From the NCBI GenBank assembly GCA_001770425.1, contig MEQZ01000014.1, positions 5,300-38,426 on the forward strand: a DNA stretch of 33,127 nucleotides. The letters run 5' to 3'. The translations under genes were made by a program, and so were the position numbers. The DNA comes from Betaproteobacteria bacterium RIFCSPLOWO2_02_FULL_65_20. Its GTDB lineage: Bacteria > Pseudomonadota > Gammaproteobacteria > Burkholderiales > SG8-39. Each line of letters starts with the position of its first letter. The first letter of the stretch is position 1. This document shows positions 336-16,845 of this stretch, piece by piece. Below the pieces are notes generated by a model. It worked only from the letters and a program-made list of their open reading frames with translations. It had not been told where the DNA came from and did no database searches.

Positions 336-346
336 TCAGAGCTTGT
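336..346. repeat. Left copy of 11-bp direct repeat TCAGAGCTTGT
   Basis: Identical 11-mer at 8798-8808. Both copies are intergenic and lie near the edges of the lower-GC block. Confidence 0.5.
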
Positions 347-367
347 ACCAAATCTGCCTCCGAATGC

Positions 368-769
368 TCAAGCGTCTGGCAGTGCGGCAATGGCGCTGAT
401 CTCGATCAGGTAATCGGGCGAGGTCATCTTGCAGACCTCGACCATGGTCGAAGCCGGTGCGGGTGGTTTGAAATATTCGCGGCGCACTTTATGGATCAGG
501 TCGAAATGCTCCATGTTCCGCACGTAGACGTCGACCCGGCAGATGTCGTCGAGCGTGCCCCCCGCCTCCTCGATAGCAGCCTTCAGGTTTTCGCACACCT
601 GGCGCGTTTGGGCTTCCACATCGCCGATTCCGGCTATGGAGCCGTCGGTGCGTCGCGCGGTCATGCCGGAGATGAAAACCAGTTTCCCTCGCGCCTCGAT
701 CATCGTGGCCTGCGAAAAGTGTCCGTTGGGCTGACGCAGCTTTGCGCTCGTTATCTGCTTCTTGGCCAT
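368..769 (-). CDS. Rid (YjgF/YER057c/UK114) family protein lacking the catalytic Arg
   Basis: 133 aa from ATG 769 (MAKKQITS...). Motifs FSQA, VFISG, AQTRQVCENL, PASTMVEV and LIEISAIA. Purine-rich RBS. Confidence 0.9.
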   Translation of the reverse strand: MAKKQITSAKLRQPNGHFSQATMIEARGKLVFISGMTARRTDGSIAGIGDVEAQTRQVCENLKAAIEEAGGTLDDICRVDVYVRNMEHFDLIHKVRREYFKPPAPASTMVEVCKMTSPDYLIEISAIAALPDA

Positions 770-795
770 CCGTTTCCCCCTGTTTCCTCGATTCA

Positions 796-1872
796 TCACT
801 CGCCCGCAAACACGCCCGTCCCGGTAACGCCCAGCTGCTGCGCCGTCTGCTTGAGCTCCTTCACAACCTCTGATGCCAGGGGGCACATACCACCGTTCTT
901 CTGCAGCACGCGCCATGCGGGCTCTCCGGGCGTAAAGATACGATCCACGCCCATAGAGCGTCTTGAATGCCGGACGCGCTCCGCAAAGCCGGTCACACGC
1001 GCCCGGAACTGTGCGGGCTCGCAAAAGCGCTTCACGTCGATTCCAAGAAAGAAATGGGCGCATGCGTACGGTTCGGAAGCATCTCCGTACAGAGGCTTCA
1101 CCTCCCCACCTATCGCGCCGCAAGACAACCCCCCGCAGAACAGGTCGATCATGAAAGCCAGTCCGAATCCCTTCGGGCCAGCAGCAGGCAACAGCATTCC
1201 CTTGATAGCCTCCGCGGGATCTGTGGTCGGTTGTCCCGAGGCGTCGGTCGCCCAACCCTCGGGAATGTGCTCTCCGGCAGCTTGCGCGAGCCGGATCTTT
1301 CCCATCGCACTTGCGCTCATCGCCATGTCGAGCAAGATGGGTGGCCCTGATTCCGACGGCATCGCAATGGCGATGGGGTTGTTGCCCACGACGCGCTCCG
1401 CACCCCCGGGCGCCGGCATCAACGGTCTTGTGTTCGACATCGCGACACCAATCCAGCCGTGGTCGGCAAGCATTTGAGCCCAGCGCCCCGCCGTCCCGAA
1501 ATGGAATCCGTTGCGCACCGCAACCGTAGCGATCCCATGCTCGGGAACCCGCTCCTTGAGGATGTCGATCGCCTGCTGAGAGGTAAGCTGCCCGAGTGCG
1601 TTTTGCGCATCCAGCACGACTGCGGAACCACGATCGCTGGCAACGCGCGCCTGCGTCCTCAGAGAAACCGATCCGCCGCGGATGCGCTCGATATACAGGG
1701 GAACAAGCGTCACGCCGTGCGACGCCTGGCCTTCCATGTCTGCAGCGACCAGCGCCTCGGCCACCAGCCTGCCCGAGGGTCGCGACACACCCGCGGCCAC
1801 TAACAATGCTGCCGCAAACTCGATTAACTCGGCCTCCGGAATGCAGATATCTGAACCTGTTTTCACGATCAT
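796..1872 (-). CDS. Ldh_2 family oxidoreductase (AllD/ComC/DpkA-like)
   Basis: Motifs ADMEGQASHGV, RNGFHFG, GNNPIAIA, LDMAMS, GQPTTDP and GPKGFGLA. Confidence 0.9.
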   Translation of the reverse strand: MIVKTGSDICIPEAELIEFAAALLVAAGVSRPSGRLVAEALVAADMEGQASHGVTLVPLYIERIRGGSVSLRTQARVASDRGSAVVLDAQNALGQLTSQQAIDILKERVPEHGIATVAVRNGFHFGTAGRWAQMLADHGWIGVAMSNTRPLMPAPGGAERVVGNNPIAIAMPSESGPPILLDMAMSASAMGKIRLAQAAGEHIPEGWATDASGQPTTDPAEAIKGMLLPAAGPKGFGLAFMIDLFCGGLSCGAIGGEVKPLYGDASEPYACAHFFLGIDVKRFCEPAQFRARVTGFAERVRHSRRSMGVDRIFTPGEPAWRVLQKNGGMCPLASEVVKELKQTAQQLGVTGTGVFAGE

Positions 1873-1959
1873 GTTCTGTCCGTTAGCCCTAAGATGCGTC
1901 CGGTACAGCGTGTCCGGGCGGCCATGCGGGACCGGGCATTGTTCGGCCAGATGCGCGAC

Positions 1960-2436
1960 CTAGCGCCTGGCACGCTTCGCAGAGCCGGACTTCTTCGCCT
2001 TGCTTGCAGACCGTTTTGCCGTCCTCGCCACCCTCGGCTTGCTCTTCTTCACGACGCTGCCCACGGTCGCGTCGGAGTGATACGAAGGTCGCTTGACATA
2101 GTGCGGCCCGTCGTACATCTCCAGAAGCAAGGACTCCTTGCGTGCCATCGTCGGGCCATGCGCATGTCCCTTGGGGTTCATGTAAAACGTGCCCGGCTTG
2201 AGCACGAGACCTGTAGACGTGTATTCGTATTCGCCCTTCAGGCAATACATGAACTGGTTCGACGCATGCTTGTGGCGGATCGGCACGCCCACGCCCTTGG
2301 GACAATGAAACAGCGCGATGCTCGCCCCGGTTTTCGGGTTTTCCCAAAGCGGATAAATCCGAAACCCCGCCGGTATGTTCCGCCATTTTTTTGGATCGAG
2401 TTCCGTGACCAGCAATTCCTTGGTTCTCTTCCTCAT
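1960..2436 (-). CDS. Cupin (ChrR/DAD/Dke1-like, 3-His type) with a Lys/Arg-rich C-terminal tail
   Basis: HKHASNQFMYCLKGEYEY and PGTFYMNPKGHAHGP cupin motifs. RBS AAGGAG. Confidence 0.8.
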   Translation of the reverse strand: MRKRTKELLVTELDPKKWRNIPAGFRIYPLWENPKTGASIALFHCPKGVGVPIRHKHASNQFMYCLKGEYEYTSTGLVLKPGTFYMNPKGHAHGPTMARKESLLLEMYDGPHYVKRPSYHSDATVGSVVKKSKPRVARTAKRSASKAKKSGSAKRARR

Positions 2437-2473
2437 CGCTGATTCTCCTTCAATTGATGGGTAAGGCTCGCTC

Positions 2474-3142
2474 TTACGATCTTCCGGCGGTCGCGCGTAG
2501 TGCTATTTCTATACCGTCGCAACTGGTCACCCGGCCGAAGTAGATCTCAACGTTCTTCAGCGTGGCGGCTTGCAGGTCTGGAAAGGTCGAAGCGACGCAA
2601 TCAGCCGGCACGATGATGTCATAATCGCGAAAGTAGGCATCGCGTATCGTCGACTCGACACAATAGTTGGTTGCGACACCTGTGACGATGAGCATCTGGA
2701 TCCCCAACATGCGCATTTTGGTGTCGAGGGTAGTGTCGAAGAAGCAGCTCGGCCGGTGCTTCTCGAATACATGATCCTCGGGCCTGAGTTCAGCCTGGAA
2801 TTCGCTGACGAGTTCAGCATCCCACGTGTCTCTCAGGCATGGGAAGTAGTTGCGCTTGTCCATGTGCGAAGGAATCTTGTGAATCCGCCGCGTTACGTCG
2901 TTCTGGAAATGAACCTGCCTCGACGCGAGAATCCGCAGGCCCGCGGCGCGACACAGTCGGACAATTCGTACGATATTCGGGACCACGGCTTGCTGACGTG
3001 TCGTATCGATGCCGGCCCGGGCCATTGCGCTATCCTTGTGGCAGAAGCCGTTCTGTATGTCGACGACGAGGAGCGCGGTATCTTTTCGGTCAATCGTGAA
3101 ATCGAGGGAGAGAGCGCCTGCATCGCTTTCGTTCTTGATCAT
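2474..3142 (-). CDS. Cysteine hydrolase (isochorismatase/RutB-like amidohydrolase)
   Basis: Asp-Lys-Cys triad: VVDIQNGF, EKHRPSCF, GVATNYCVESTIRDA. Start placed at ATG 3142 behind AGGAG; the ORF track extends to 3259. Confidence 0.9.
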   Translation of the reverse strand: MIKNESDAGALSLDFTIDRKDTALLVVDIQNGFCHKDSAMARAGIDTTRQQAVVPNIVRIVRLCRAAGLRILASRQVHFQNDVTRRIHKIPSHMDKRNYFPCLRDTWDAELVSEFQAELRPEDHVFEKHRPSCFFDTTLDTKMRMLGIQMLIVTGVATNYCVESTIRDAYFRDYDIIVPADCVASTFPDLQAATLKNVEIYFGRVTSCDGIEIALRATAGRS

Positions 3143-3240
3143 AATAGGCTCCTGTTCTGGTTCTTGTCTTCGATCGGCCAGCATTTCCGTGCCGCGCCCT
3201 CCGAAACTGTTGACGAGGATTCTATATGAGGTCGATGAAA

Positions 3241-4920
3241 ATGCCATCGCGCGGTTCAAAACCCAAGTACGACCTAGTCATCGAGAAAGACGTCGAGATC
3301 CCGATGCGCGACGGCGCCGTCCTGCGCGGCGATGTGTTTCGGCCGAAGTCGGCACAGCGCGCTCCGGTGATCATGAATCTCGGCGCCTACCAGAAGGACA
3401 AGATCTGGCTGCCGCCGGACGAGGTCGACGAAAGGGCCAATCCCCACATGAACTGGGAGACGGCCAATCCACTTTGGTGGGTACCGAGAGGGTACGCGCT
3501 GGTGCGAGTCGACTCACGTGGCTCGGGCAAGTCCCCGGGACTCAACAATCCTTGGTCCCCTTCCGAAGCACGGGATTTCTACGATGCCATTGAGTGGGTC
3601 GCCAGAGCGCCGTGGTGCAACGGACGTGTGGGCACGCTGGGTATCTCCTACTACGCAATGAACCAATGGCTGGTAGCGAATCTGCGTCCGCCTTCCCTCA
3701 AAGCGATGATTCCCTGGGAAGGGGCGGCAGACATGTATCGCGATTTCGCGTACCACGGCGGCCTGTTCAGTTTCGGGTTCGCCGTAAACTGGTATCACGC
3801 ACAGGTCGCCCACCACAGGCTCGGCAAGCCCAGGTCGACGTCGCCGGATGGGTTCTCCAGCCCCTGGCTGCTCGAATACCTGCGGGAGAACCTGGATAGC
3901 GAGTGGTATTTCGGGAGACAGGCGCGCTGGAGTGAAATCGACATTCCGTTCCTCTCGGCCGGCAACTGGAGCGGCATGGGACTGCACCTGCGCGGAAATT
4001 GCGAGGCCTTCACACGCGCGGCGTCGCGGCACAAGTGGCTGCGAATCGATACAGGCACCCACTATGGCCCTTTCTACAGCGAGGAGGGCCGACAAGACCA
4101 GTTGCGCTTTTTCGACTATTGGCTCAAGGGCGTCGAGACAGCGCTGCTCAAGGAACCCCGAATAAAGTTGCGCATTCGAAAGGGCGGCAAAGACAACTAC
4201 GAATGGCGCCATGAAAGGAACTGGCCGCTCAAGCGCACGCGCTGGACCCGGTTTTACCTGAACCCTGTGAAGGTACCCGCCCGCCAAGATGCCGACGGCA
4301 CGCTCACGATTCTCGCGCCGCGCAAGGCAACATCGCTCACCTACTGGTCAAACGGACTGGCGCAACCTGGTCTCGGAACGCCAACTTGGATGAGCGGCAT
4401 GATCGGAAAGAGCAGTCCGCGCACGGGCATTTCATTTGAAACGGCACCGCTCGATCGGAATACCGAGATCACCGGCCCGGTAGCGCTTGTGCTCTGGGTC
4501 GCCAGCGGCACAGAGGACATGGATATCTACGCGACCATTCGCAACATCGATGCAGACGGAAACGACGTCTTCGAACAGGGGCAGCAAGGCCAACCGGTAC
4601 CGGTTGCCAAGGGATGGCTACGCGCCTCCCACCGCAAGCTCGACCCTAATCTCACTCTGCCCTATAGGCCATATCACGCCCACACCGAGCGACTCTGGCT
4701 CAAGCCTGGTGAACCGGTAAGAGTCGAGGTGGAAATATGGCCCACGTGCATGGTCTTCGCCAAGGGTCACCGGATCCGCCTCGATATCCAGCCGCGGGAC
4801 GGCATCGGCAGTGCACCCTACACGCACTATTCGGCAGACTACAACTGCGCGACAAATACAGTGTTTGCAGGAGGAAGCCGGGCGTCTTACCTCCTGCTCC
4901 CCCTCATCGCAGACCGCTGA
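3241..4920 (+). CDS. CocE/NonD family serine hydrolase (peptidase S15-like)
   Basis: IPMRDGAVLRGDVFRP, VDSRGSGKS, GISYYA nucleophile elbow, and C-terminal EITGP / GWLRASHR / GHRIRLDI domain. Alternative starts at 3226 and 3235. Confidence 0.9.
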   Translation: MPSRGSKPKYDLVIEKDVEIPMRDGAVLRGDVFRPKSAQRAPVIMNLGAYQKDKIWLPPDEVDERANPHMNWETANPLWWVPRGYALVRVDSRGSGKSPGLNNPWSPSEARDFYDAIEWVARAPWCNGRVGTLGISYYAMNQWLVANLRPPSLKAMIPWEGAADMYRDFAYHGGLFSFGFAVNWYHAQVAHHRLGKPRSTSPDGFSSPWLLEYLRENLDSEWYFGRQARWSEIDIPFLSAGNWSGMGLHLRGNCEAFTRAASRHKWLRIDTGTHYGPFYSEEGRQDQLRFFDYWLKGVETALLKEPRIKLRIRKGGKDNYEWRHERNWPLKRTRWTRFYLNPVKVPARQDADGTLTILAPRKATSLTYWSNGLAQPGLGTPTWMSGMIGKSSPRTGISFETAPLDRNTEITGPVALVLWVASGTEDMDIYATIRNIDADGNDVFEQGQQGQPVPVAKGWLRASHRKLDPNLTLPYRPYHAHTERLWLKPGEPVRVEVEIWPTCMVFAKGHRIRLDIQPRDGIGSAPYTHYSADYNCATNTVFAGGSRASYLLLPLIADR

Positions 4921-4949
4921 GAGCCGCCCGTTAAGCAGCGGCTACGCGC

Positions 4950-5918
4950 CTATTCGGGCTGGATACCCGCCAGGCGAGCCCCTTCGGTCCAGCGGTCGAC
5001 TTCGCGCTTCAGAAACGCCGCGAATTCTTCGGGCTGTGATCCGACCGTATCGACACCCGAGGTGGCAAATCGGTTGTGCACCTCGGGCATGCGCAGGACA
5101 GCGACAATATCCGCGTTGATCTTGCGCACCAGTGCGGGGGGCATTCCAGCCGGACCAAATACGCCCTGCCACGGCTGCACGTCGAAGCCTGGGACGCCGC
5201 CCTCGGCAACCGTTGGTAACTCGGGGACCAGCGGCGCGCGAACCGAACCTGTGACGGCGATGCCAACGACCCGGCCAGCCTTGATCTGCGGGAGGACGGT
5301 AGGCAGATCGCCGATGATCATCTGCACCTGCCCCTGGATCACGTCGTTCAGGGCCTGGGCGGTGCCCTTGTAAGGCACATGCAACATCTTCAAATCCAAT
5401 GCCGAGCCCAGCAGTTCAAACGCAAGATGGGACGTGCCACCGATACCCGAGGACCCGTAGGACACCTTGCCCGGCCGGGCCTTTATGTAGTCCCTCAACG
5501 CGCGAAACGTATTCACACCAAGCGACGGGTGCACCGCTAGTACCCAATTTGCACGCGTGACCTGGGTAATCGGCGTGAAATCCTTCAGGGGGTCGTAGAG
5601 CATCTTCTTGATGCTCCCCACGTTCATCGCGTGGGACTGGATCGTGCCCACCACGAGCGTATAACCGTCCGCTGGCGCCTTCGCCACGGCATCCCCGCCT
5701 ATCATTCCGGACGCACCAGGCTTGTTATCGACCACGACCGATTGACCCCACCGTTCCTGGAGCTTCGGTTGCAGCAGTCTAGTAGTGAAATCAACGGGCC
5801 CGCCAGGGGGATACGGGACTACCACCCGGACCGGCTTCTGGGGGAAGCCCTGCGCGCCGACAAGTCCTGCCGAAAGGAAAAGAATCCATACGGAAATTCG
5901 GATTGCGAAAGAAAACAT
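4950..5918 (-). CDS. Bug/TctC tripartite tricarboxylate transporter solute-binding protein
   Basis: Signal peptide; VVVPYPPGGPVD, DNKPGASG, ADGYTL, YGSSGIGG, HVPYKG. RBS AAAGGAG before ATG 5918. Confidence 0.92.
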   Translation of the reverse strand: MFSFAIRISVWILFLSAGLVGAQGFPQKPVRVVVPYPPGGPVDFTTRLLQPKLQERWGQSVVVDNKPGASGMIGGDAVAKAPADGYTLVVGTIQSHAMNVGSIKKMLYDPLKDFTPITQVTRANWVLAVHPSLGVNTFRALRDYIKARPGKVSYGSSGIGGTSHLAFELLGSALDLKMLHVPYKGTAQALNDVIQGQVQMIIGDLPTVLPQIKAGRVVGIAVTGSVRAPLVPELPTVAEGGVPGFDVQPWQGVFGPAGMPPALVRKINADIVAVLRMPEVHNRFATSGVDTVGSQPEEFAAFLKREVDRWTEGARLAGIQPE

Positions 5919-6299
5919 GTGCGCTCCTTTCATCTCATACGATTCAGCTTCCTGCGTCATTTTGCTCCCGTATCGTACCGCTGCCTATGCAGATCTTCTC
6001 GCCAAAGCAGGTCGGTATCTGCGATGGAGCTTCTGCACGCCGCAATCGGAATGCCGATCGGTGAAATATACATCCAATTGGGTGCCTTGCAGCAACGTCA
6101 GGACGGTTGCGCGGTTGCAGTCGGGGGGTGCCGTGCACTGCGGCCCGGCAATTTCCGCCAAAGAATTTGCGCCCAATCCGGGTCCGGAAGCCCTTGCACC
6201 AGTCGACACCAGCTTCGGCGTTCACGCCTCCAGGGGAGGCGCTGTCCGGGACGAATTCGAACCGGATTAAGGAGCGCCCGCGCGCATTCGCGTTTGTAT

Positions 6300-6325
6300 G
6301 TGATCGGATTGAAGCTTCCGATCAC
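6300..6325. promoter_or_regulatory. 9-bp inverted repeat (candidate operator) in AT-rich divergent promoter region
   Basis: GTGATCGGA-N8-TCCGATCAC between the two divergent Bug genes. Line 6301-6360 is only 22/60 G+C. Confidence 0.4.
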
Positions 6326-6490
6326 TTTATGCAGTTAAGTAAAGTAGAATCGAATGTGTATTCAAGTGAAGAGGACTCGATAATGAACTCATGGTCAATT
6401 AAGTGTCGTCCGGCACATGCTCAGATATCCAATTGCGGCGCCAAGACGCGCGTCCTGCCGTTGACCACCCGCATCGAAGGAGCACTTATC

Positions 6491-7474
6491 GTGACGCGCC
6501 TTCGAACAGGAGTGGTGAGGTCGCTGTTCCTTGCCGCTGCCCTGCTTGCTCAGGGCGCGGCGTTCGCACAGACCTATCCCGACAAACCGATCCGGATCGT
6601 GGTGCCTTATCCGCCTTCCGGAGTGAACGACATCGTCGCGCGCGCGCTCGCCGTCCGGGTTACAGAAAGTATCGGCCAGCCGGTATTGGTTGAGAATCGA
6701 CCGGGCGCATCGGGCAAGGTCGGCACCGAGTACGTCGCCAGGGCCGCCGCGGATGGCTACACCGTGTTGGTAGGCGGTACCGGTACTCATTCGATCAATC
6801 CGGCACTGAACCCCAAGCTGAGCTACGATCCGGTGCGCGATTTCGCCCCGATCACGCTGCTCTCCACCTACTCCATGGTACTCGTGGTGAACCCCTCGCT
6901 GCCGGTCGCTACCGTCTCGGAACTGATCGCATGGGCGAAGGCCCGGCCCGGAGTGTTGACGGTGGCCTCGGCCGGCGCCGGCGGCGCCCAGCATCTCGCC
7001 TGGGAGATGTTCCGCCTAGCCACCGGCTTGGAGGGTGTGCACGTGCCCTACAAGGGCAGCGTTCCGGCGCTGAACGACGTTGTCGGCGGACAAGTGCAGG
7101 CCATGATCGACCTGCTCGCCTCCGCGGTGCCAATGGTCCGCGCCGGCAAGTTGCGCGCGCTAGCTGTCACCAGCAGCTCGCGCGTGGCCAGCCTGCCCGA
7201 TGTGCCGACATTCGCCGAAGCGGGCGTACCGAACTACGTCGTGGTCAACTGGAACGGACTGTTCGCGCCAGCAGGCACCCCCAGGCCGGCGATCGAGCGG
7301 TTGAACGCGGAGTTCGTGCGTGCGCTCAATATTCCGGAAGTTCGCAGGCTGTTGGTCACGCGGAACGCGGACCCGGGCGGCGGGACGCCGGAGGAGTTCG
7401 GTACCTGGGTACGCGACCAATTGCAGCGATGGACGAAAGTTATCCGAGAAGCTGGGATCAGCCCCACATCCTAA
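6491..7474 (+). CDS. Bug/TctC tripartite tricarboxylate transporter solute-binding protein
   Basis: GTG start behind GAAGGAG; signal peptide ending AAFA-Q; IVVPYPPSGVND, ENRPGASG, ADGYTV, HVPYKG. Confidence 0.92.
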   Translation: MTRLRTGVVRSLFLAAALLAQGAAFAQTYPDKPIRIVVPYPPSGVNDIVARALAVRVTESIGQPVLVENRPGASGKVGTEYVARAAADGYTVLVGGTGTHSINPALNPKLSYDPVRDFAPITLLSTYSMVLVVNPSLPVATVSELIAWAKARPGVLTVASAGAGGAQHLAWEMFRLATGLEGVHVPYKGSVPALNDVVGGQVQAMIDLLASAVPMVRAGKLRALAVTSSSRVASLPDVPTFAEAGVPNYVVVNWNGLFAPAGTPRPAIERLNAEFVRALNIPEVRRLLVTRNADPGGGTPEEFGTWVRDQLQRWTKVIREAGISPTS

Positions 7475-7611
7475 TATCCAAAACTGGGGTGCCATCGCAG
7501 GCATCGGCTCGTGCCCGGACCTGCGCGGCTCGTTTCCTACGGAGTACGTCGAATCGACCCGGCGGAGCGCGTAGCATCCGGTCAAATATGAACCTTGATT
7601 GAAGGAGTGCG

Positions 7612-8754
7612 ATGAGCCACTGTGTGGGCGTGCGCGAGGTCGGTTATCTGGACTGCGCGGGCGGCGGCCAGATAATGGTGGAAGGCAATTACGCCTACAT
7701 CGGACATATCACCGGGCCGGAGGGAACCAGTATCGTCGACGTGCGTGATCCTGGACATCCCAAGGTCGTCGCCGAATTGAGCATCGAAACGGGTTTGCAC
7801 TCGCACAAGGTACGCGTGGCAAACGGCATCATGCTCATCAATCGCGAAGTCGACCCGGCCACGAGAGCGACGACTGGACACGCTCCGCAGGGCGGCCTCG
7901 TAATATACGACGTCTCTGACCCTCGCCATCCGCACGAGATCCTGTTTTGGAAATGTGCCGGGTCCGGCGTGCACCGCTTCACCTTCGATGGCCGCTATGC
8001 CTACATATCTCCGGAGATGGAAGGCTACCGAGGCAACATCGTCGTGATCCTGGACCTCGCCGATCCGGCGAAGCCGGTTGAAGCAGCACGCTGGTGGATG
8101 CCGGGACAATGGACCGCCGGCGGCGAGAAACCTTCGTGGAAGGAGGAGGGTTCCCGCGCGCCGCGCTGCCACCATCCCATCCGAATGCGGGACAGGCTCT
8201 ACGTAAGCTACTGGCACGGCGGTGGATTCATTCTGGACATCGCCGACCTGTCCCGACCCAGGGTGCTCTCATCGATAGACTGGGGCTCGACTTTCCCGTG
8301 GCCGATGCACTCGCTGGTACCTGTACCGTTCCCGATCCATGGCCATCGCTGGATGCTGATCGCCGATGAGGACGTCCTGCCCCGCACTGCGTGCATCCCG
8401 TCCCGCATGCCTGCGTTCCTTTGGATGGTCAACATCACGGACGAAACGAAGCCCATTCCGGTGGGTAGCTTCCAGGTCGAAGGACTAGACGGCGGGGAAC
8501 ACCCAACGCAGACCGGATGCCATCAGCCGGTGGAGAACATTCGCGGCACCGAAGTGCCGTGCGCATGGTTCGCTAAGGGCCTGCGCATTGTGGACATATC
8601 CAACCCGCATACCCTGCGCGAGGTGGCCTCATACATGCCTGACCCGGCGCCCGGCGCAAACAAAGTCAGCAGCAACGACGTGTTCATGGACGATCGCGGG
8701 CTGATCTACTTGATCGACCGCATACGGGGTCTGCATATTGTCGAGCGCCTATGA
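7612..8754 (+). CDS. LVIVD-repeat (beta-propeller) protein
   Basis: Repeated GTSIVDV / GLVIYDVSDP / VILDLADP / GFILDIAD / GLRIVDISNP blades. RBS GAAGGAG. No signal peptide. Confidence 0.85.
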   Translation: MSHCVGVREVGYLDCAGGGQIMVEGNYAYIGHITGPEGTSIVDVRDPGHPKVVAELSIETGLHSHKVRVANGIMLINREVDPATRATTGHAPQGGLVIYDVSDPRHPHEILFWKCAGSGVHRFTFDGRYAYISPEMEGYRGNIVVILDLADPAKPVEAARWWMPGQWTAGGEKPSWKEEGSRAPRCHHPIRMRDRLYVSYWHGGGFILDIADLSRPRVLSSIDWGSTFPWPMHSLVPVPFPIHGHRWMLIADEDVLPRTACIPSRMPAFLWMVNITDETKPIPVGSFQVEGLDGGEHPTQTGCHQPVENIRGTEVPCAWFAKGLRIVDISNPHTLREVASYMPDPAPGANKVSSNDVFMDDRGLIYLIDRIRGLHIVERL

Positions 8755-8797
8755 GTGCATCGGTGACCGCGCGGCTGGAGCCCCTGAAAACCTCCAG

Positions 8798-8808
8798 TCA
8801 GAGCTTGT
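8798..8808. repeat. Right copy of 11-bp direct repeat TCAGAGCTTGT
   Basis: Identical to 336-346. Immediately preceded by the hairpin CTGGAG...CTCCAG (8775-8797). Confidence 0.5.
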
Positions 8809-8923
8809 GTCCGCTCGACAACAGGACGCCGCGGCGACCCCATCGACAACGAGCCCGGTCGTGCCCTCACCTGCTGCGAGCAATCGGGGCAACCGTATTC
8901 ACAAAACAGCATGGAGTAGACAA

Positions 8924-10639
8924 ATGACACAGAACAACACGGGCATCGGCAACGCGGGCGAGGTGTTTCTGCGCCTGCTGGCCAGCCGCGGCGTGGATTA
9001 TTTCTTCGCCAATCCCGGCACCGACTTCGCGTCGATCTGCGAGGCGCTCGCGCGCGCCCGGCAGGAAGGCTTCGCGGTGCCCAGAGCGGTGCTGGTGCCG
9101 CACGAGAACATCGGTGTGGGCATGGCCTACGGCGTGACCATGGTGACCGGCCGCGCGCAGGCGGTGATGGTGCACGTGAACGTGGGCACCGCCAACGCGA
9201 TCTGCGGCCTGATCAATGCCTCGCGCGAGAACATCCCCATGCTGATGGCCGCCGGGCGCACGCCGTTGTACGAATCCGGCAGGCACGGAGCCCGTTCGCA
9301 GAACATCCACTGGGCCCAGGAGATGTTCGACCAGTCGGCGATGCTGCGCGAGGTGGTGAAGTGGGACTACGAGCTTCGCGCCGGCGAGCAGATGGAAAGC
9401 GTGGTGGATCGCGCGCTGGCCATCGCCCGCAGCGAACCCAAGGGGCCGGTGTATCTGTCGCTGCCGCGCGAGGTGCTCGCCGAAGCGGGGGTCGCGCCCG
9501 GTTCGGCGGCAGCGTTGCAGAACCCGCCCGCCCCGCCCTCGCCGGACCCGGAGTCGATCGAGCGCGCCGCGTCCATCCTGGCCCGCGCGAAGAATCCGCT
9601 GGTGATCACCGCGCGCGCAGGGTCCGAGCCCGAGGCCGTGCCGCTGCTCGAGGCGCTCGCGGAGCGCTACGCGCTGCCGGTGGTCGAGTACCGGCCGCGC
9701 TACCTGTCGATCTCCAGCGCGCATCCGATGCACGCGGGCTACGAGCCGGGGCCATGGCTCGATGCCGCAGACGCGATCCTGGTGCTCGATTGCGACGTGC
9801 CCTGGATACCGGAGGCGAAATCGCCCGCGGCGGGCGTGCCGGTGATCCAGGTCGGCACCGACCCGCTGTTCGCGCGCTATCCGGCGCGGGGATTCCGCGG
9901 CGAGCTGAGCATAGCGAGCACCTCGCGCCGCGCGCTGGCCGCGCTCGGGGCAGCGCTGGAGCGCGCCGGCGTCGATCCCTCGCTGGTCGCGCAACGGCGC
10001 TCGCGCATCGAGGCCGCGGGCGCCGCGCGCCGCGCCGGCCTGGAGAAACTAATCGGCTCGGCGCGCAGCGCATCGCCCATGGGCATGGCGTGGGTGAGCC
10101 GCGCCCTTGCGGAAGCCATCGCGCGCGCTGGAGTCGGCGACGCGATCATCGTTAACGAATATTCGCTGCTCGCGCCCGCGGCGAACCTGACCCTGCCGGG
10201 CAGCTATTTCGGATCCAGCCCGGTCGGCGGACTGGGCTGGGGCCTGCCCGCGGCGCTCGGGGCGAAGCTGGCCGCGCCCGAGCGGCTGGTGATCGCGACG
10301 CTCGGCGACGGCAGCTACAGCTTCGCCAATCCGCTGGCCTGCTATCACGCCGCGGCGATGCACGACACGCCGGTGCTCACGCTGGTGTTGAACAACGGCG
10401 GCTACGGCGCCGTCGAGCGCGCCACGCGCGCGATGTATCCGAAGGGGATCGCGGCCAGCCAGGGCATACCGTTGGTGTCGCTCGATCCGCTGCCGCGCTA
10501 CGACGCGGCCATCGCCGCCTGCGGCGGACACGGCGAGCGCGTCGTCGAGGCCGAGGCGCTGCCCGCGGCGCTCGACCGGGCGATCCGCGCGGTGCGCGAG
10601 GACCGCCGCCAGGCGCTGCTGGACGTCGCCTGCGTCTGA
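8924..10639 (+). CDS. Thiamine diphosphate-dependent enzyme (acetolactate synthase/decarboxylase superfamily)
   Basis: FANPGTDF, PHE catalytic Glu, GPVYLSLP, GLGWGLPAALG, and the GDG...NN ThDP-binding motif. RBS GGAG before ATG 8924. Confidence 0.9.
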   Translation: MTQNNTGIGNAGEVFLRLLASRGVDYFFANPGTDFASICEALARARQEGFAVPRAVLVPHENIGVGMAYGVTMVTGRAQAVMVHVNVGTANAICGLINASRENIPMLMAAGRTPLYESGRHGARSQNIHWAQEMFDQSAMLREVVKWDYELRAGEQMESVVDRALAIARSEPKGPVYLSLPREVLAEAGVAPGSAAALQNPPAPPSPDPESIERAASILARAKNPLVITARAGSEPEAVPLLEALAERYALPVVEYRPRYLSISSAHPMHAGYEPGPWLDAADAILVLDCDVPWIPEAKSPAAGVPVIQVGTDPLFARYPARGFRGELSIASTSRRALAALGAALERAGVDPSLVAQRRSRIEAAGAARRAGLEKLIGSARSASPMGMAWVSRALAEAIARAGVGDAIIVNEYSLLAPAANLTLPGSYFGSSPVGGLGWGLPAALGAKLAAPERLVIATLGDGSYSFANPLACYHAAAMHDTPVLTLVLNNGGYGAVERATRAMYPKGIAASQGIPLVSLDPLPRYDAAIAACGGHGERVVEAEALPAALDRAIRAVREDRRQALLDVACV

Positions 10640-10688
10640 TCGCACCGCGGCCCGCATCGAGACGACCCGCTCATCGGAGGCGCGCGCC

Positions 10689-12395
10689 ATGTCCCGCGAT
10701 CCCGGACCATCCGATCCCAGCCTGCGCTACGGCGAGTTCCTGAGCGCGGTGCGCGTCAGGCAGCGGCTGGTGAGCTACAACCGCGTGCACGAAGAAGGGC
10801 GCAGCCAGGCCAGGGCGCCGCAGCTGCGCCTCGTCGATCTGCACCGCCTGCTCACCCCTTACGTGAGCGTGCGTTTCCTGGAACAGGCGCGCGCCGTAGT
10901 GCCGCTGGCGCTGTTTCTTGCGCTGTTCCAGACCGCCGCGCTGCGCGTTGCCGTGCGGGAGGGCGACGAAATCATCCTCGGCATGCTCGCGGTGATGCTC
11001 GGGCTGACGCTGTTCATGGACGGAGTCAAGTATGGGCTGATGCCGTTCGCCGAAAACATCGGCTTCAAGCTGCCCGGCCGCTCGCCCACGGCGGTCGTGC
11101 TCGCATTCGCATTCCTGCTCGGCGGGATCGCCACGTTCGCCGAACCGGCGATCGGCGCGCTGCGCGCCGCGGGCGCGGGACTGGATCCGGCGCGCACGCC
11201 CTGGCTGCACCTGCTGCTCACGCGCTATCCGGACCGGCTGGTATTCGCCGTCGGCGCCGGCGTCGGCGCCGCTGTGGTATTGGGCATGCTGCGCTTCATC
11301 TACGCGTGGCGCATGAAGACGCTGGTCATCGCCGTGCTCCTGCCCTGCCTCGCCGCTTCGGTCTACGCCGGACTCGATCCGCGTCTGGCGCCCATCCTCG
11401 GCCTGGCCTGGGACTGCGGCGCGGTCACCACCGGGCCGGTGACGGTGCCGCTGGTGCTGGCGCTGGGAATCGGCGTCGGGGCCGCTGCCGGCGACCGGGA
11501 CAACCCTCTCTCGGGCTTCGGTATCGTCACCCTTGCCTCGCTGTTTCCGGCCATGGCGGTGATCCTGGTCGCCGTGGGCCTGGTGGCCGAAGTGCCCGAC
11601 CCCGGCGCGCTGCCGGCGCTTGCCGAGGTTGGAACCGCGGCGGCGTGGTGGGACCAGACGCCGGTGGCCGAGATGATCGGCGCCCTGCGCGCCATCGCGC
11701 CGCTTGTCCTGCTCCTGTGGCTGGCGCAACGCTTCCTGCTCGGCGAGACGCTGGCGCAGCGCCAACTCATCGCCTACGGCGTGGTGACCGCCGTGCTCGG
11801 CATGAGCCTGTTCAACGTCGGCCTGAGCATAGGCCTGATCCCGCTGGGCGACCAGGCCGGCAACGTCGTTCCCTCCGCCTTTCACGCCGCGCAGGGCGGC
11901 ACGCCGCTCTACCCCTATGCTTTCGGCGTCGGCCTGACGCTGCTGTTTGCCGCCACCATAGGCTATGGCGCCACGGTGGCCGAACCGGCGCTCAATGCGA
12001 TGGGCGTCACGGTGGAGAATCTCACCGACGGCGCCTTTCCGCGCAAGCTGCTGATCCGGGCCGTGGCCACGGGCGTGGCCATGGGCACGGCGCTGGGGGT
12101 CGCGAAAATCATTTTCCAGTGGCCCATGCTGCCGCTGCTGCTGGGCGCCTACGCCGTGGCGCTGGTGTGCACGGTGCTGTCGATCGACGAGTATGTAAGC
12201 CTGGCATGGGACAGCGCCGGGGTCACCACGGGCCCGGTGACGGTGCCGCTCGTACTGGCGCTCGGCCTGGGTCTGGGCAAGGCGGTGGGCGCCGCGGAAG
12301 GTTTCGGCATCCTGGCCATGGCATCGGCCGGGCCGATCATCAGCGTGCTGGCGGTGGGGCTGTGGATCCGCCGCCGCAGCGCCGCCGAGCATTGA
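10689..12395 (+). CDS. DUF1538 family membrane protein with two fused DUF1538 domains
   Basis: Highly hydrophobic. Two copies each of AEPA and AWD(C/S)(G/A)(A/G)VTTGPVTVPLVLALG, plus GFGI. RBS GGAGG. Confidence 0.85.
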   Translation: MSRDPGPSDPSLRYGEFLSAVRVRQRLVSYNRVHEEGRSQARAPQLRLVDLHRLLTPYVSVRFLEQARAVVPLALFLALFQTAALRVAVREGDEIILGMLAVMLGLTLFMDGVKYGLMPFAENIGFKLPGRSPTAVVLAFAFLLGGIATFAEPAIGALRAAGAGLDPARTPWLHLLLTRYPDRLVFAVGAGVGAAVVLGMLRFIYAWRMKTLVIAVLLPCLAASVYAGLDPRLAPILGLAWDCGAVTTGPVTVPLVLALGIGVGAAAGDRDNPLSGFGIVTLASLFPAMAVILVAVGLVAEVPDPGALPALAEVGTAAAWWDQTPVAEMIGALRAIAPLVLLLWLAQRFLLGETLAQRQLIAYGVVTAVLGMSLFNVGLSIGLIPLGDQAGNVVPSAFHAAQGGTPLYPYAFGVGLTLLFAATIGYGATVAEPALNAMGVTVENLTDGAFPRKLLIRAVATGVAMGTALGVAKIIFQWPMLPLLLGAYAVALVCTVLSIDEYVSLAWDSAGVTTGPVTVPLVLALGLGLGKAVGAAEGFGILAMASAGPIISVLAVGLWIRRRSAAEH

Positions 12396-12420
12396 AAGCG
12401 AAGCAACGGAGGGAGCCCGA

Positions 12421-12804
12421 ATGAAAAAACGCGACGAGATCGTGGTGCTGACCGATGCGGTGCTGATCACCTGCATCGTCCAGCGCGGTTCGGCCGACGC
12501 GGTGGTCGATGCCGCGACGGAAGCCGGGGCGCAGGGCGCCACTATTTTCTACGCGCGCGGCACCGGCGTGCGCCAGAAGCACCTTGGCGTGCTCGGCATC
12601 ACGGTCAATGCCGAGAAGGAAGTGCTCTATATCGTCGCCCCCAGCGACCATGCGGACCACATTTTCGAGCGCATCTACGTCGCCGCCCACCTCGACACAC
12701 CGGGAATGGGCATGCTCTACATGATGCCGCTGGAGAAGATGGCGACCTACGTTCCCCCCGAGGTCGCGACGCGTTTCGGTCACCATGCCGGCCGCCGTGG
12801 ATAA
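12421..12804 (+). CDS. P-II superfamily (P-II-like) signal transduction protein
   Basis: LITCIVQRG...AGAQGAT...ARGTG...EKE...LDTPGMG pattern. RBS GGAGGGAG. Confidence 0.85.
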   Translation: MKKRDEIVVLTDAVLITCIVQRGSADAVVDAATEAGAQGATIFYARGTGVRQKHLGVLGITVNAEKEVLYIVAPSDHADHIFERIYVAAHLDTPGMGMLYMMPLEKMATYVPPEVATRFGHHAGRRG

Positions 12805-13165
12805 GCCGGACAAGGCTGCCGCGGCGCCGCCCGCAGGCGTCCGGTATCGCGTGATCATCTGCATCATGCCCGCCGGCCGCGGCGCGGAGATGCTGCAAGC
12901 CCTGCGCAGCGAGACCGGCGTCATCAGCGCCTACACCCACCATGCGCGCGGCATCGGCACGCACAGCCTGCGCCACCGCATCTATTCCGACGAAAAGCAG
13001 ATCTTCACCGTGCTGGTGGAGGACGAGCGCGCCGACGAGGTGTTCCACTTTCTCTATTACCGCGCCGGCCTGGACACGCCGCACGCAGGAATGATCATGA
13101 TGGGCCGCGCGGCACGCGGAGCCGGCGTCGTTCCGCTGCCCGAGGCCGCAAGCGGCGGCGCGTAG
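12785..13165 (+). CDS. Second, more divergent P-II-like protein
   Basis: IICIMPAG...ARGIG...EKQIFTVLV...LDTPHAG parallels the upstream P-II-like protein. Overlaps its stop; alternative GTG start at 12797. Confidence 0.7.
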   Translation: MPAAVDKPDKAAAAPPAGVRYRVIICIMPAGRGAEMLQALRSETGVISAYTHHARGIGTHSLRHRIYSDEKQIFTVLVEDERADEVFHFLYYRAGLDTPHAGMIMMGRAARGAGVVPLPEAASGGA

Positions 13166-13194
13166 GCGCCCGTCTGCGGCACCCCGGGGCGCCG

Positions 13195-14427
13195 CTAGGA
13201 GATTTTCGGCGTCAGCACCAGACGCCGTATCGCGGCGCTCCTGGCCAGCGACAGCCACACGTAGCCCAGCACGATGGCCGCTCCGCCCGCGAGCGCCGCG
13301 CGGGGCCCGGTCAGCGAGCCGACGAAGTTCAGCAGGAAGCCGCTCAGGAACATCAGGCTCCACACCAGCGTGAACACGCCCATCACCCTGCCGCGGTACT
13401 GGTCATCCACGAGCGTCTGCAGGATCACCTGGCAGCTGGTCACAAAAACCGCGTGGTTGAGCCCGACCACGAGCAGCAACACGAACGAAACCCAGAACCA
13501 GCTGCTCAGCGCAACGCCGATAAGCGCGAAGCAATACGCGCTCAGCGAATACACCATCGCGTTCCTGGGCGTCGTGCGCGCGTGCAGCCACGAATAGAAA
13601 AGCAGCCCGCACAGCGCTCCGATCCCGGGCGCCGACGCGAGTATGCCGAGCCCGCGCGAATCGACCCCGAGCACGTCCTTGGCGAACACGGGCAGCGTGT
13701 AGATGTAGCCCATGGCGAGGGCCGCGTTCAACAGCGAGGCGACAATGACCTTGGAGAAGACTTCGTTCTTACGGATGTAGCGCACGCTGTCGGCGAGGTT
13801 GTCGATCAGGCTGCCATACGAGGGCGCGCCGCGGGTGCTGGACCGCACCAGGAACAGGATCGCGATCATCGAGCTGATCCCGATCGCCGAGAGCAGGAAG
13901 GTGACGGACGCGCCGGCCGCCGCGATCAGAAAACCGGCGAGCGAAGGCGCGACGATGCGCGAGCCGCCGAAGGCCATGGAGATGAGCGGGACACCCGAGC
14001 CCAGGTGCGACTTGGGGAGCAGCCGCGGAAAGAACGCCGTGCGGCTCGGCTCGTCGATGGCGTTGGACAAGCCGAGCAGAAGCGACCCGAGGGCGAGGTG
14101 CCAGAGCTCCGCCCGGCCCAGGAACGTCATGATCCCCACCCAGATGACCCCGACCGCCGCGAACGACTGGGCGGCCTGGATGAGCTTGCGCGGGTCGATG
14201 CGGTCGGCGAGCGCCCCGCCTATCATCGTCAACGCGAACTGCGGCACGAACGCGCACAAGTGGATCAGACCGAGCTGCGCCTGCGAGCCGGTGATCTCGA
14301 ACGCCAGCCACCCGAGCGTGAACTGGAACATGTGCTGGCCACTGATCTGCGCGATCAGGCCGCTCCAGTACAGCCTGAAGTCCCGCACCCGCAGAGCGAT
14401 CAGCGCGCCGCCTTTGAATTCGGTCAT
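13195..14427 (-). CDS. MFS transporter (DHA3/MFS_3-like)
   Basis: About 12 hydrophobic segments; RDFRLYWSG, GGALADRIDPRK (motif A) and YRGRVMG. Confidence 0.9.
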   Translation of the reverse strand: MTEFKGGALIALRVRDFRLYWSGLIAQISGQHMFQFTLGWLAFEITGSQAQLGLIHLCAFVPQFALTMIGGALADRIDPRKLIQAAQSFAAVGVIWVGIMTFLGRAELWHLALGSLLLGLSNAIDEPSRTAFFPRLLPKSHLGSGVPLISMAFGGSRIVAPSLAGFLIAAAGASVTFLLSAIGISSMIAILFLVRSSTRGAPSYGSLIDNLADSVRYIRKNEVFSKVIVASLLNAALAMGYIYTLPVFAKDVLGVDSRGLGILASAPGIGALCGLLFYSWLHARTTPRNAMVYSLSAYCFALIGVALSSWFWVSFVLLLVVGLNHAVFVTSCQVILQTLVDDQYRGRVMGVFTLVWSLMFLSGFLLNFVGSLTGPRAALAGGAAIVLGYVWLSLARSAAIRRLVLTPKIS

Positions 14428-14517: not shown

Positions 14518-16845
14518 TTACCCCTTTGCCTCCCGGATCGCTCGCCACAGCTTTTGCGGCGTCGCAGGCATGTCGATGTGGGTGATCCCCAGCGGCGAGA
14601 GCGCGTCCACCACGGCGTTCATGATCGCCGCGAGCGCCCCGACGTTGCCCGCTTCGCCCGCGCCTTTGGCGCCCAGCGGATTGGTCTTGGTCGGCACCGG
14701 GTGGTTCTCCATGGTGAACGCGCACATGTCGTCCGCGCGCGGCATGCCGTAGTCCATGAACGAGCCGGTGAGCAACTGCCCCGAGTCCGGGTCGTAGACG
14801 ACGTGCTCGCTGAACGCCTGGCCCACGCCCTGGCCGATGCCGCCGTGGATCTGGCCTTCCAGCGTGAGCGCGTTGATCACCGTGCCGACGTCGTCGACCA
14901 CGGTGTAGTTCAGCACTTCGGACTTGCCGGTCTCAGGATCGATCTCCACCTCGCAGATATGGCAGCCGGTCGGGAAATTGGGAATCTCGGGCGAGTAGGC
15001 CGCCGATTCCGCCAGTCCGGTCTCCATGTCCGCGGGAATCTTCGAGCGCTGGAAGGCGGCCTGCACGACCTCGAGCAGCTTCACCTTGCGGTCGGTGCCG
15101 GCCACGCGAAACGCCGCTTCCTTGAACTCGACGTCGGCCGCGGCAACCTCGAGTATGTGCGCCGCGATGCGCCTGCCCTTGTCGATGATCTTGTCCATGG
15201 CGAGCGTCACCGCGCTGCCCCCCAGCACCGCGGTGCGCGAGGCGAACGTGCCCCCGCCGTCGGCGGCGACATCGGTGTCGTTGCGCGCCACCCGGATCGA
15301 ATCGGCGTCGATCCCCAGGCGGGCACTCACCAGGATCTTGTACATGGTCTCGTGGCCCTGGCCGTGCGAGATCGATCCGGGCACCACCGTCACCCCGCCC
15401 GCCGGATCGAAGCGCACCTGCACCGTCTCGCCGAAGCTCTGCGAGGTCTGTTCGATCACGTTGCCGATGCCGATTCCGCGCAGCCTGCCGCGGCGCGCGG
15501 ACTCGGCGCGGCGCGCCTCGAACGTTGCGTAGCCCGAGAGTTCGAGCCCGCGCTCCAGGTTGGCGGCAAAATCGCCGCAGTCGTAGGTGAACACGAGCCC
15601 GGTCCGAAACGGCATCGCGCTCGCCGGGATGGTGTTCCTGCGGCGCAGCTCCGCGCGGTCGATCTTCATCTCGCGCGCGGCATTGTCGATCACGCGCTCG
15701 AGGATGTACGCGGCCTCCGGCCGCCCCGAGCCGCGGTAGGGCCCGTTGCAGGAGGTGTTGGAGAACACGCCCGCGACTTCGACGTAGATCGCGGGCGTGG
15801 TGTAGGTGCCGGCCAGCCCGCCCAGATGAGCGGTGGGCGAGATCAGGCCGCCGGGCATCATGTAGGCGCCGATGTTGGACACGTTGGAGACGCGCAGCGC
15901 GAGAAACCTGCCCTCGCGGTCAAGTGCCAGCGCCGCCTCGCTGATGTGGTCGCGGTCGTGGTCGTCGCTCGCCATCGCATCGCCGCGCTCGCAGATCCAC
16001 TTGACCGCCCGCCCGACCTTCTTCGAGGCCCAGAGCGCGAGCGCGTACTCCGGATAGTGCCCGCCCTTCATGCCGAAACTGCCGCCGACTTCGCCCGCCA
16101 CGACGCGCAGCTGCGTCTCGGGAATCCTCAGCACGGCGTGGCCCACGTCGTGGCGCGTGCGGTGCGGGCGCTGGGTGCCGGTCCACAGCGTGTAGCGCTC
16201 GTCGCGCTCGTCGTATTCGCCGATGCAGCCGCGCGGCTCCATGGTCGCCGCGGTGACGCGGTTGATCACGATGCGCAGCCGGGTCACGTGGTGCGCGCGC
16301 GCGAACGCGGCCTCCACCGCGCCTCGATTGCCCTGCGTGAAGAAGAAGGTCTCGTTGTCGGGGCAGCCTTCCCACAGCGCGGGCGCGCCGGGTGCGCCGA
16401 TGCGCTCGGTCGCGGTCAGCGCCGGCAGCGGCTCGTACTCGACCTCGATGCGCTCGGCCGCGTCCCTCGCCAGCGAGACGGTTTCGGCGACCACGAACGC
16501 CACCGGATCGCCCACCAGCATGACGCGCCCGTGCGCCAGCGCGGGGCGCGGCGGCACGAATATCGGCTTGCCGTCACGCCGGCGGCGCGGAATGCTCGGC
16601 TCGATGTGGCCGAAGCCTTCCGCCGCCCAGTCCTCGCCGGTCAGCACCGCCAGCACGCCGGGCATCGCGCGCGCGGCGCGCGCCTCCACCGACACGATGC
16701 GCGCATGCGCGTGGGGCGAGCGCAGCACGCAGGCGTGGCACTGGCCGGGGACGAAGAAGTCGTCGACGAATTTTCCCCGGCCGGTCAGCAGGCGCGGATC
16801 TTCGGTGCGCGGCACCGACTGGCCAATTGCGAACTCTCCCATCAT
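14518..16845 (-). CDS. Xanthine dehydrogenase family molybdopterin-binding large subunit (CoxL-like, not form I CODH)
   Basis: RTEDPRLLTGRG, GGSFGMKG, PYRGSGRPE, HGQGHET, GQIHGG and GAKGAGE. Confidence 0.92.
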   Translation of the reverse strand: MMGEFAIGQSVPRTEDPRLLTGRGKFVDDFFVPGQCHACVLRSPHAHARIVSVEARAARAMPGVLAVLTGEDWAAEGFGHIEPSIPRRRRDGKPIFVPPRPALAHGRVMLVGDPVAFVVAETVSLARDAAERIEVEYEPLPALTATERIGAPGAPALWEGCPDNETFFFTQGNRGAVEAAFARAHHVTRLRIVINRVTAATMEPRGCIGEYDERDERYTLWTGTQRPHRTRHDVGHAVLRIPETQLRVVAGEVGGSFGMKGGHYPEYALALWASKKVGRAVKWICERGDAMASDDHDRDHISEAALALDREGRFLALRVSNVSNIGAYMMPGGLISPTAHLGGLAGTYTTPAIYVEVAGVFSNTSCNGPYRGSGRPEAAYILERVIDNAAREMKIDRAELRRRNTIPASAMPFRTGLVFTYDCGDFAANLERGLELSGYATFEARRAESARRGRLRGIGIGNVIEQTSQSFGETVQVRFDPAGGVTVVPGSISHGQGHETMYKILVSARLGIDADSIRVARNDTDVAADGGGTFASRTAVLGGSAVTLAMDKIIDKGRRIAAHILEVAAADVEFKEAAFRVAGTDRKVKLLEVVQAAFQRSKIPADMETGLAESAAYSPEIPNFPTGCHICEVEIDPETGKSEVLNYTVVDDVGTVINALTLEGQIHGGIGQGVGQAFSEHVVYDPDSGQLLTGSFMDYGMPRADDMCAFTMENHPVPTKTNPLGAKGAGEAGNVGALAAIMNAVVDALSPLGITHIDMPATPQKLWRAIREAKG

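Follow-up and report, generated by a model that had tools for sequence, protein, structure and literature searches.

A fused double-DUF1538 transporter gene and its closely linked pair of non-canonical P-II-like genes in a betaproteobacterial genome

Few signal transducers are as widespread as the P-II proteins. To our knowledge, only two of their partnerships with membrane transporters, those with AmtB and SbtA, are understood. Here we describe a three-gene cassette that points to a further partnership of this kind. It lies in a stretch of 33,127 nucleotides (nt) of the genome of Betaproteobacteria bacterium RIFCSPLOWO2_02_FULL_65_20 (assembly GCA_001770425.1, contig MEQZ01000014.1, positions 5,300 to 38,426), called the window below, and consists of a gene for a membrane protein made of two fused DUF1538 domains, followed by two small genes for P-II-like proteins, of which the first is termed A-type and the second B-type. 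DUF1538 genes and P-II-like genes of this subfamily are linked near-obligately, whichever of the two is taken as the starting point. On balance we favour the view that the membrane protein is a cation/proton antiporter-like transporter, and that a dedicated trimer of A-type and B-type proteins on its cytoplasmic face modulates transport through a bound small molecule. In public annotation these genes carry the names "DUF1538 domain-containing protein" and "P-II family nitrogen regulator", which are not connected with each other; nothing ties the small proteins to nitrogen, and the routine annotation is in this respect corrected here.

The linkage was surveyed in the best 80 of at least 580 confirmed stretches of the fused type in species-level genomes (one genome per species; the query was an alignment of eight sequences). 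All 80 loci carry a fused double-DUF1538 gene, and they come from Gamma-, Beta- and Alphaproteobacteria, Campylobacterota, Nitrospirota, Gemmatimonadota, Planctomycetota, Leptospira, Kiritimatiellae and Opitutales. A P-II-like open reading frame (ORF) follows directly downstream on the same strand in every one of the 77 loci whose sequence extends 420 nt or more past the DUF1538 gene. Room for two genes was present in 73 loci, which hold an A+B pair (69), a single chain of three P-II-like domains (3) or a single gene (1). Single-sequence search recognised 67 of these loci as two-gene arrangements; the other six were sorted by profile hidden Markov models (HMMs), which placed a B-type gene in L010 and L040 (our locus numbers), a three-domain chain in L060, L071 and L072, and one gene in L057. 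The genes are tightly packed, with overlaps at 33 of 45 junctions between the DUF1538 and A-type genes (28 of them by exactly 4 nt) and at 46 of 56 junctions between the A-type and B-type genes. In the window the A-type gene begins 25 nt past the stop codon of the transporter gene and is overlapped by the B-type gene by 20 nt, an arrangement already read correctly in a preliminary description of this DNA.

DUF1538 domains also occur in a split form, as two adjacent genes of umpA and umpB type, which were matched in 151 of the 401 genomes sampled from the phylum. A P-II-like ORF of about 116 amino acids stands after umpA-umpB in all of the best 30 split loci, and 12 of 12 extended split loci contain exactly one P-II-like gene. 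In the reverse search, a profile of the A-type protein was run against 301 genomes of the class and matched 23 times at E <= 1e-15, in 20 of these genomes. All 22 assessable matches adjoin a DUF1538 gene, and the remaining one is 124 nt from the start of its contig; among the assessable matches examined, the A/B-like subfamily is thus found only beside DUF1538 transporters. No other neighbour of the cassette recurs in more than 8 of the 80 fused loci, and the three genes form a self-contained cassette.

Strict linkage is equally compatible with a different arrangement of roles, in which the transporter is not under the control of the P-II-like proteins; the membrane protein would act as sensor or membrane anchor, and the trimer would inform other targets in the cytoplasm of the ion or energy status by sequestration-type signalling. 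P-II proteins are indeed multi-target hubs, and AmtB sequesters GlnK at the membrane, thereby controlling other proteins. However, no third gene is conserved with the cassette, hence no dedicated downstream target is visible, and the subfamily was never met away from DUF1538 among the 22 assessable matches. We regard such a relay as improbable.

The A-type protein is recognised by the Pfam P-II family (PF00543) at 44.6 bits, with a gathering cut-off of 25, and has more than 2195 homologues. The B-type protein matches no family in Pfam or NCBIfam. It is 30% identical to the A-type protein (E 4e-11) and has 93 close homologues, mostly unnamed, from metagenome bins of Burkholderiales and Sulfuritalea; a profile of this family gave a P-II chain as its best match in the PDB, only at E 0.058. 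In the AlphaFold2 model of the B-type protein (predicted local distance difference test, pLDDT, 76) the structural elements follow the order E-H-E-(H)-E-H-E, as in the ferredoxin-like beta-alpha-beta-beta-alpha-beta fold of P-II, and Foldseek returned 44 matches at E <= 0.001, for which the listed rows are GlnK, PII, SbtB, PstA and PH1503 with probability 1.00; PDB entries 2ns1 and 7egk are among the fold matches. We assign the P-II fold to the B-type protein because the element order and the Foldseek matches of its model both fit P-II. The preliminary description had taken both small proteins for P-II-like, which profile search bears out for the A-type and not for the B-type protein, the latter being placed by its model. 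Two findings could, by computation, have undone that description, a linkage confined to this genome and a second small protein of another fold; linkage was found across genomes in both directions, and the fold is that of P-II.

Canonical GlnB and GlnK proteins carry a modifiable tyrosine in the T-loop (Tyr51), a B-loop of the form TGxxGDGKIF and a C-terminal RxRTGE. Two such canonical P-II genes, scoring 114-119 bits, are encoded on other contigs of the same genome, so that the A-type and B-type genes are extra P-II genes; their products served as reference for the comparison of loops. Aligned with these GlnB and GlnK proteins, the T-loop region of A and B is shortened by about 6-10 residues and no tyrosine aligns in it, the B-loop reads LDTPGMGMLY in A and LDTPHAGMIM in B versus TG-KIGDGKIF, and the C-terminal RIRTGE is absent from both. 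The alignment agrees with the preliminary description, which had pointed to the lack of canonical features and to the variant LDTPGMG and LDTPHAG loops. The D-x-P-G-x-G loop recurs in the partners of other DUF1538 transporters. The A-type protein is well conserved across phyla, with a mean column identity of 51% in 46 sequences and near-invariant ARGxGVRERLG, EK, LDTPGMG and ATYVP motifs; the glycines that frame the nucleotide cleft of P-II are retained in it, as is a lysine which may correspond to K58. The corresponding mean identity of the B-type protein is 34% (50 sequences), with about eight near-invariant positions.

This high divergence of the B-type protein, together with the absence of canonical nucleotide-contact motifs from A and B, would suit small proteins that serve the transporter as structural or assembly subunits, without a signalling role, and have retained nothing of P-II but the fold. 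We consider this very improbable. Conservation across phyla of the glycine framework and of ARGxGVRERLG in the T-loop region of the A-type protein argues for a functional site, and the split DUF1538 pair UmpAB was inserted and active in Escherichia coli without a P-II gene (PMC5484666).

In a tree of the partner proteins the B-type sequences stand apart from A-type proteins, single-gene partners and pieces of three-domain chains with a support of 96/100, and their branches are longer. The tree is built on few columns and contains long branches; GlnB and GlnK of this genome joined the B side on a very long one, so the tree is presented without rooting or order of events. Judged from these sequences, the split between A and B appears to be old. 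The prevalence of paired genes and the existence of three-domain single chains suggest that A and B probably form a heteromer. The three-domain chains are located at 5934-7049 in L060, 5919-7037 in L071 (Leptospira) and about 5880-7059 in L072 (Kiritimatiellae). Partners of this kind, of about 370-400 amino acids, are also present in three genomes of the window's class (L142-L144). Pfam detects only their middle domain, which in L060 falls under the cut-off. Two further loci show deviating partners. In Vescimonas fastidiosa (NZ_AP023416.1, L156) a fused DUF1538 gene is followed at 3927-4601 by a "P-II family nitrogen regulator" of 224 amino acids, matched by Pfam at residues 122-199 only; being long enough for two domains, it would be a fourth partner format. 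In L041 (5785-6385) the A-type ORF is seemingly truncated to 108 amino acids, covers only the first half of the profile and shares more than 200 nt with the B-type ORF, which may reflect a frameshift or an assembly error.

The membrane protein matches the Pfam family DUF1538 (PF07556) in two copies with 330.6 bits (cut-off 22.6, E 3.9e-99). Between the halves the identity is 35% over 246 columns (E 2e-20), and the AEPA and VTTGPVTVPLVLALG motifs occur in each, so the internal duplication first noticed in the bare sequence is that of the DUF1538 domain. The N-terminal half matches the UmpA model of NCBIfam (NF041627) at 201.8 bits and the C-terminal half the UmpB model (NF041628) at 156.1 bits, both far short of the scores required of equivalogs, 490 and 500 respectively. 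Among 22 long relatives of 641-991 amino acids there is no P-II or other additional Pfam domain, hence no fusion of Rosetta-stone type. The AlphaFold2 model of the transporter is confident (pLDDT 90.4; predicted template modelling score, pTM, 0.90). Each half contains two broken helices, and the breaks fall exactly at AEPA and TTGPV. The acidic residues at these sites are nearly invariant in fused sequences (Table 1), and the AEP and (W/Y)D positions are conserved as well in 12 of 12 UmpA-type and 12 of 12 UmpB-type split subunits. The model is therefore consistent with the re-entrant ion-binding elements that had been proposed at the outset: in each half, two helices would be broken in mid-membrane, at AEPA and at AWD...TTGPV.

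The two halves show opposite charge bias. Counts of lysine plus arginine in odd versus even loops are 11 versus 6 in the N-terminal half and 1 versus 5 in the C-terminal half; in split subunits they average 8.2 versus 0.8 for the UmpA type (n=12) and 2.7 versus 6.7 for the UmpB type (n=12). The N-terminus is rich in arginine, the C-terminus ends in RRR, and the linker between the halves has neither lysine nor arginine. By the positive-inside rule, both termini would be cytoplasmic and the linker outside. Conserved residues on the side predicted to face the cytoplasm include E122, R202, K210 and E443. The charge bias points to an antiparallel architecture of 7+7 crossings, realised by two genes in the split clade and by one chain here, in keeping with the inverted repeat suggested in the preliminary description.

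Comparison with solved structures gave no convincing counterpart. A sequence search of the PDB with the transporter yielded 0 matches at E <= 10, and Foldseek found no clear match for its model (best E 0.059, template modelling score 0.14). VIA-align against 48,161 chains reached Z 6.8 at best, with generic helical matches, and re-alignment to the top 992 chains of Foldseek reached Z 6.0, an absence of match that does not make the fold new. The sole recurring transporter, the Na+/Ca2+ exchanger NCX_Mj of the CaCA family (Z 3.4-5.7 over 66-164 aligned residues), scores under what the alignment tool regards as meaningful for helical proteins.

What the transporter carries is best approached through UmpAB of Halomonas zhaodongensis. 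This DUF1538 pair is a pH-dependent Na+(Li+,K+)/H+ antiporter, whose co-expressed genes conferred tolerance to salt, Li+ and alkaline conditions on E. coli KNabc; UmpA and UmpB co-immunoprecipitate and act as a heterodimer (PMC5484666). The statement of the preliminary description that DUF1538 has no established substrate is therefore outdated. The family is also named in a table of Pfam families in the section on pH-adaptation genes of another paper (PMC13255231). The four conserved carboxylates of the present transporter most likely form cation/proton sites, which makes alkali-cation/H+ exchange the most likely activity, and since UmpAB belongs to the same family, bicarbonate or ammonium is a less likely substrate than alkali cations and protons.

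The same architecture and the same P-II regulation could nevertheless serve another physiological substrate, such as ammonium, a divalent cation, bicarbonate or some other ion or solute, the Na+/H+ activity of UmpAB being lineage-specific or a side activity. The scores of about 200 and 156 bits against the UmpA and UmpB models would fit such a change, as would the TTGPVTVP of the fused clade, which stands where the split clade has TTSTITVP. Many carriers are, by their record titles, sulfur- or iron-oxidising autotrophs, a SulP-STAS-cNMP transporter adjoins 8 of the 80 loci, and the two P-II-gated transporters known to us carry ammonium and bicarbonate. Against this, the four membrane carboxylates are common to the split and fused clades and fit cations or protons better than anions, Na+/H+ exchangers are among the recurrent neighbours, and no carboxysome, RuBisCO or nitrogen-assimilation genes are prominent in the flank clusters, of which the four largest were annotated. 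A non-alkali substrate thus seems rather unlikely to us. The largest of these clusters are the SulP-STAS-cNMP transporter and a hybrid histidine kinase (7 loci); exchangers of the CPA family occur with a TrkA_N domain in 6 of the 80 loci and with a cNMP-binding domain in 5. The flanking ion transporters give a mild hint of an ion-homeostasis theme. Loci adjoined by such ion transporters, which carry fused nucleotide-sensing domains, are L019, L020, L028, L039, L051, L067, L074 and L087; L063-L070; and L033, L061 and L082-L084.

Physical association of the transporter with its partners was addressed by complex prediction. Transporter residues 40-568, two A-type chains and one B-type chain were each supplied as an alignment, with the transporter as the scored partner and the 2:1 ratio assumed. 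The interface score ipSAE was 0.41, 0.42 and 0.42, compared with 0.00 in all three controls, and the result was classed as "weak support"; at least 61% of contacts agreed between runs, and the pLDDT of the partners was at least 73. The mark applied to this score is reached by 116 of 157 solved complexes and by 2 of 215 mismatches. As gene linkage provides a high prior, the prediction counts as a modest addition. Gating of transport, as envisaged in the preliminary description, has this weak support.

Our favoured reading can be put as follows. The transporter would be a secondary transporter of the UmpAB/DUF1538 family, in which two homologous, oppositely oriented units of seven helices are fused in one chain. 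A and B would most likely assemble as a mixed trimer, with the conserved A-type protein as the ligand-sensing subunit and the fast-evolving B-type protein breaking the three-fold symmetry. Docked on the cytoplasmic side of the pseudo-two-fold transporter, this trimer would tune transport according to a small-molecule signal. The occurrence of partners as one gene, two genes or a three-domain chain suggests one trimer per transporter, with asymmetry tolerated or even selected. A modulator also fits the behaviour of UmpAB, which was active in E. coli from umpAB alone and hence does not require a P-II partner for activity; the clone ended with umpAB, and P-II or PII has 0 occurrences in that paper (PMC5484666). 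Inhibition is the likelier direction of control, given that UmpAB works without its partner and that the P-II caps known to us close their transporters when bound. The specific proposal that the trimer senses adenine nucleotides finds no backing here, the canonical phosphate-binding lysine and arginine positions not being conserved.

Several points weigh against this reading. The B-loop lysine and the C-terminal Arg-x-Arg, the canonical contacts to the phosphates of ATP, are by the alignment not conserved in A or B. The scores far under the UmpA and UmpB equivalog cut-offs mean that the substrate may differ, and neither a riboswitch nor a regulator hints at what it is. The antiporter assignment of UmpAB itself comes from heterologous complementation and vesicle assays in one study (PMC5484666). 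Being the best 80 of at least 580, the loci surveyed are biased towards relatives of this transporter. The complex prediction was made with an assumed stoichiometry and reported no interface; by the tool's own account, passes that do not exceed 0.60 are in the majority wrong, except where the guess was already likely. Finally, we know of no solved precedent for a three-fold P-II trimer on a two-fold transporter.

A wider generalisation is put forward tentatively, and we think it doubtful rather than probable: the cassette may represent a third, very widespread class of P-II-controlled transporter. An asymmetric trimer, encoded as one gene, an A/B pair or a three-domain chain, would sit one-to-one on an antiparallel pseudo-two-fold antiporter by symmetry mismatch and would place Na+/H+ and pH homeostasis under an energy or second-messenger signal, the B-type protein being a pseudo-sensor kept to fit the asymmetric target. 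The pairing is notable in that none of the matches examined places the partner subfamily elsewhere and the fold of the transporter has no convincing solved counterpart. If our favoured reading holds, it would explain how a family of alkali-cation/proton antiporters is switched by metabolic state, and would show how a three-fold sensor can be adapted to a two-fold target. The positions of the features discussed are collected in Table 1.

Table 1. Features of the cassette in the window (position 1 is the first letter of the window)
Feature	Position	Strand	Basis
Fused double-DUF1538 (UmpA-UmpB-like) membrane transporter, 568 amino acids	10689..12395	+	ORF; PF07556 x2
N-terminal DUF1538 half (residues 48-301), 7 crossings, inferred N-in/C-out	10830..11591	+	model helices, lysine plus arginine bias
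AEPA motif 1 (residues 151-154), helix break	11139..11150	+	E152 kept in 64/65 fused sequences
TTGPV motif 1 (residues 247-251), helix break, AWD before it	11427..11441	+	D242 kept in 64/65
C-terminal DUF1538 half (residues 325-567), inferred N-out/C-in	11661..12389	+	homology to N-terminal half, lysine plus arginine bias
AEPA motif 2 (residues 431-434), helix break	11979..11990	+	E432 kept in 60/65
TTGPV motif 2 (residues 513-517), helix break, AWD before it	12225..12239	+	D508 kept in 65/65
A-type P-II-like protein, 127 amino acids	12421..12804	+	PF00543, 44.6 bits
Variant B-loop LDTPGMG of A-type (residues 91-97)	12691..12711	+	alignment
B-type P-II-like protein, 126 amino acids, fast-evolving paralogue of A	12785..13165	+	P-II-fold model match
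Variant B-loop LDTPHAG of B-type (residues 96-102)	13070..13090	+	alignment

The distribution of the cassette is patchy, as DUF1538 is present in only 2 of 40 relatives of this genome, in the same gene order. On the mobilizable plasmid pGW6_2 of Methylocystis rosea (NZ_CP034088.1, L155), a split DUF1538 pair with one P-II gene lies between two IS66 transposase genes, and a copy on such a replicon fits the patchy distribution.

In the window, a gene for an enzyme requiring thiamine pyrophosphate (TPP) lies upstream of the cassette on the same strand (8738-10639, +), its stop codon being 49 nt from the transporter gene. It matches family PRK08327 at 668.9 bits (cut-off 456) from residue 67 on, so its true start is probably downstream of 8738; the annotated start is overlapped by a gene for an LVIVD-repeat protein (7612-8754, +; PF08309, E 3.1e-18). 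The TPP enzyme was considered as a fourth member of the operon and ruled out, since the clusters of genes flanking the 80 loci do not show it as a recurrent neighbour. The G+C content of the window is 0.56-0.63 over positions 1-9000 and 0.63-0.72 over 9001-33127; the step at about 9 kb, just upstream of the TPP enzyme and the cassette, could mark the boundary of a genomic island or a mis-joined contig of the draft genome. Two genes convergent with the cassette code for an MFS_3/EntS-like transporter (13195-14427, -) and a molybdopterin-binding large subunit of the xanthine-dehydrogenase/aldehyde-oxidase family (14518-16845, -). Farther away, 16-19 kb downstream of the cassette, are a class III nucleotide cyclase with GAF-GAF-PAS domains (28927-31290, +) and a GGDEF-EAL protein (31380-32939, -); these are probably unrelated to the cassette and would be relevant if the P-II-like proteins bind cyclic nucleotides. 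A scan of 8500-13600 for promoters and terminators gave no signal above chance, and a search of 30 sources (about 262 kb) for Rfam families, riboswitches included, found none close to the cassette, the sole match being one transfer RNA (L088).

No paper linking P-II to DUF1538 was found in the searchable literature, with subscription journals and supplements outside the search; two candidate papers contained the terms in their lists of references alone. P-II-gated transporters are known as such; for the DUF1538 transporter family with a dedicated P-II-like subfamily, and for the paired A/B form, no description was found in searchable papers.

Among known systems, UmpAB is the nearest. The transporter shares with it the Pfam family, the similarity of its N-terminal half to UmpA and of its C-terminal half to UmpB, the AEP and (W/Y)D...VTT...TVP motifs and the carboxylates; with UmpAB-type pairs in general it has in common the opposite charge bias of the two units and the P-II-like gene that follows umpB in the best split loci. 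It differs in that the halves are fused in one chain, that two diverged P-II-like genes are present instead of one, and that the scores stay under the equivalog cut-offs. In GlnK-AmtB and SbtB-SbtA, a P-II or P-II-like trimer gates a co-transcribed transporter. Here, too, a gene for a protein of P-II fold lies directly downstream of a transporter gene and is strictly linked to it, and a cytoplasmic cap is the working model. Unlike AmtB and SbtA, however, the transporter belongs to another family with no detectable fold match and is a pseudo-two-fold single chain, not a homotrimer; its partners are two paralogues with non-canonical loops, and the binding of the cap is a prediction. NifI1 and NifI2 are paired P-II paralogues that form a heteromer regulating nitrogenase. 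The A-type and B-type proteins resemble them as adjacent, diverged paralogues that probably act together, whereas their putative target is a membrane transporter, their heteromer is putative, and the B-type protein is far more degenerate. The transporter itself recalls dual-topology evolution, known from small membrane proteins that are paired or fused in antiparallel orientation, for example the DUF606 and EmrE-type families. As in these, homologous units of opposite lysine plus arginine bias are encoded by neighbouring genes or joined in a single chain, but the DUF1538 units are much larger, with seven crossings each, and are accompanied by a dedicated soluble partner.

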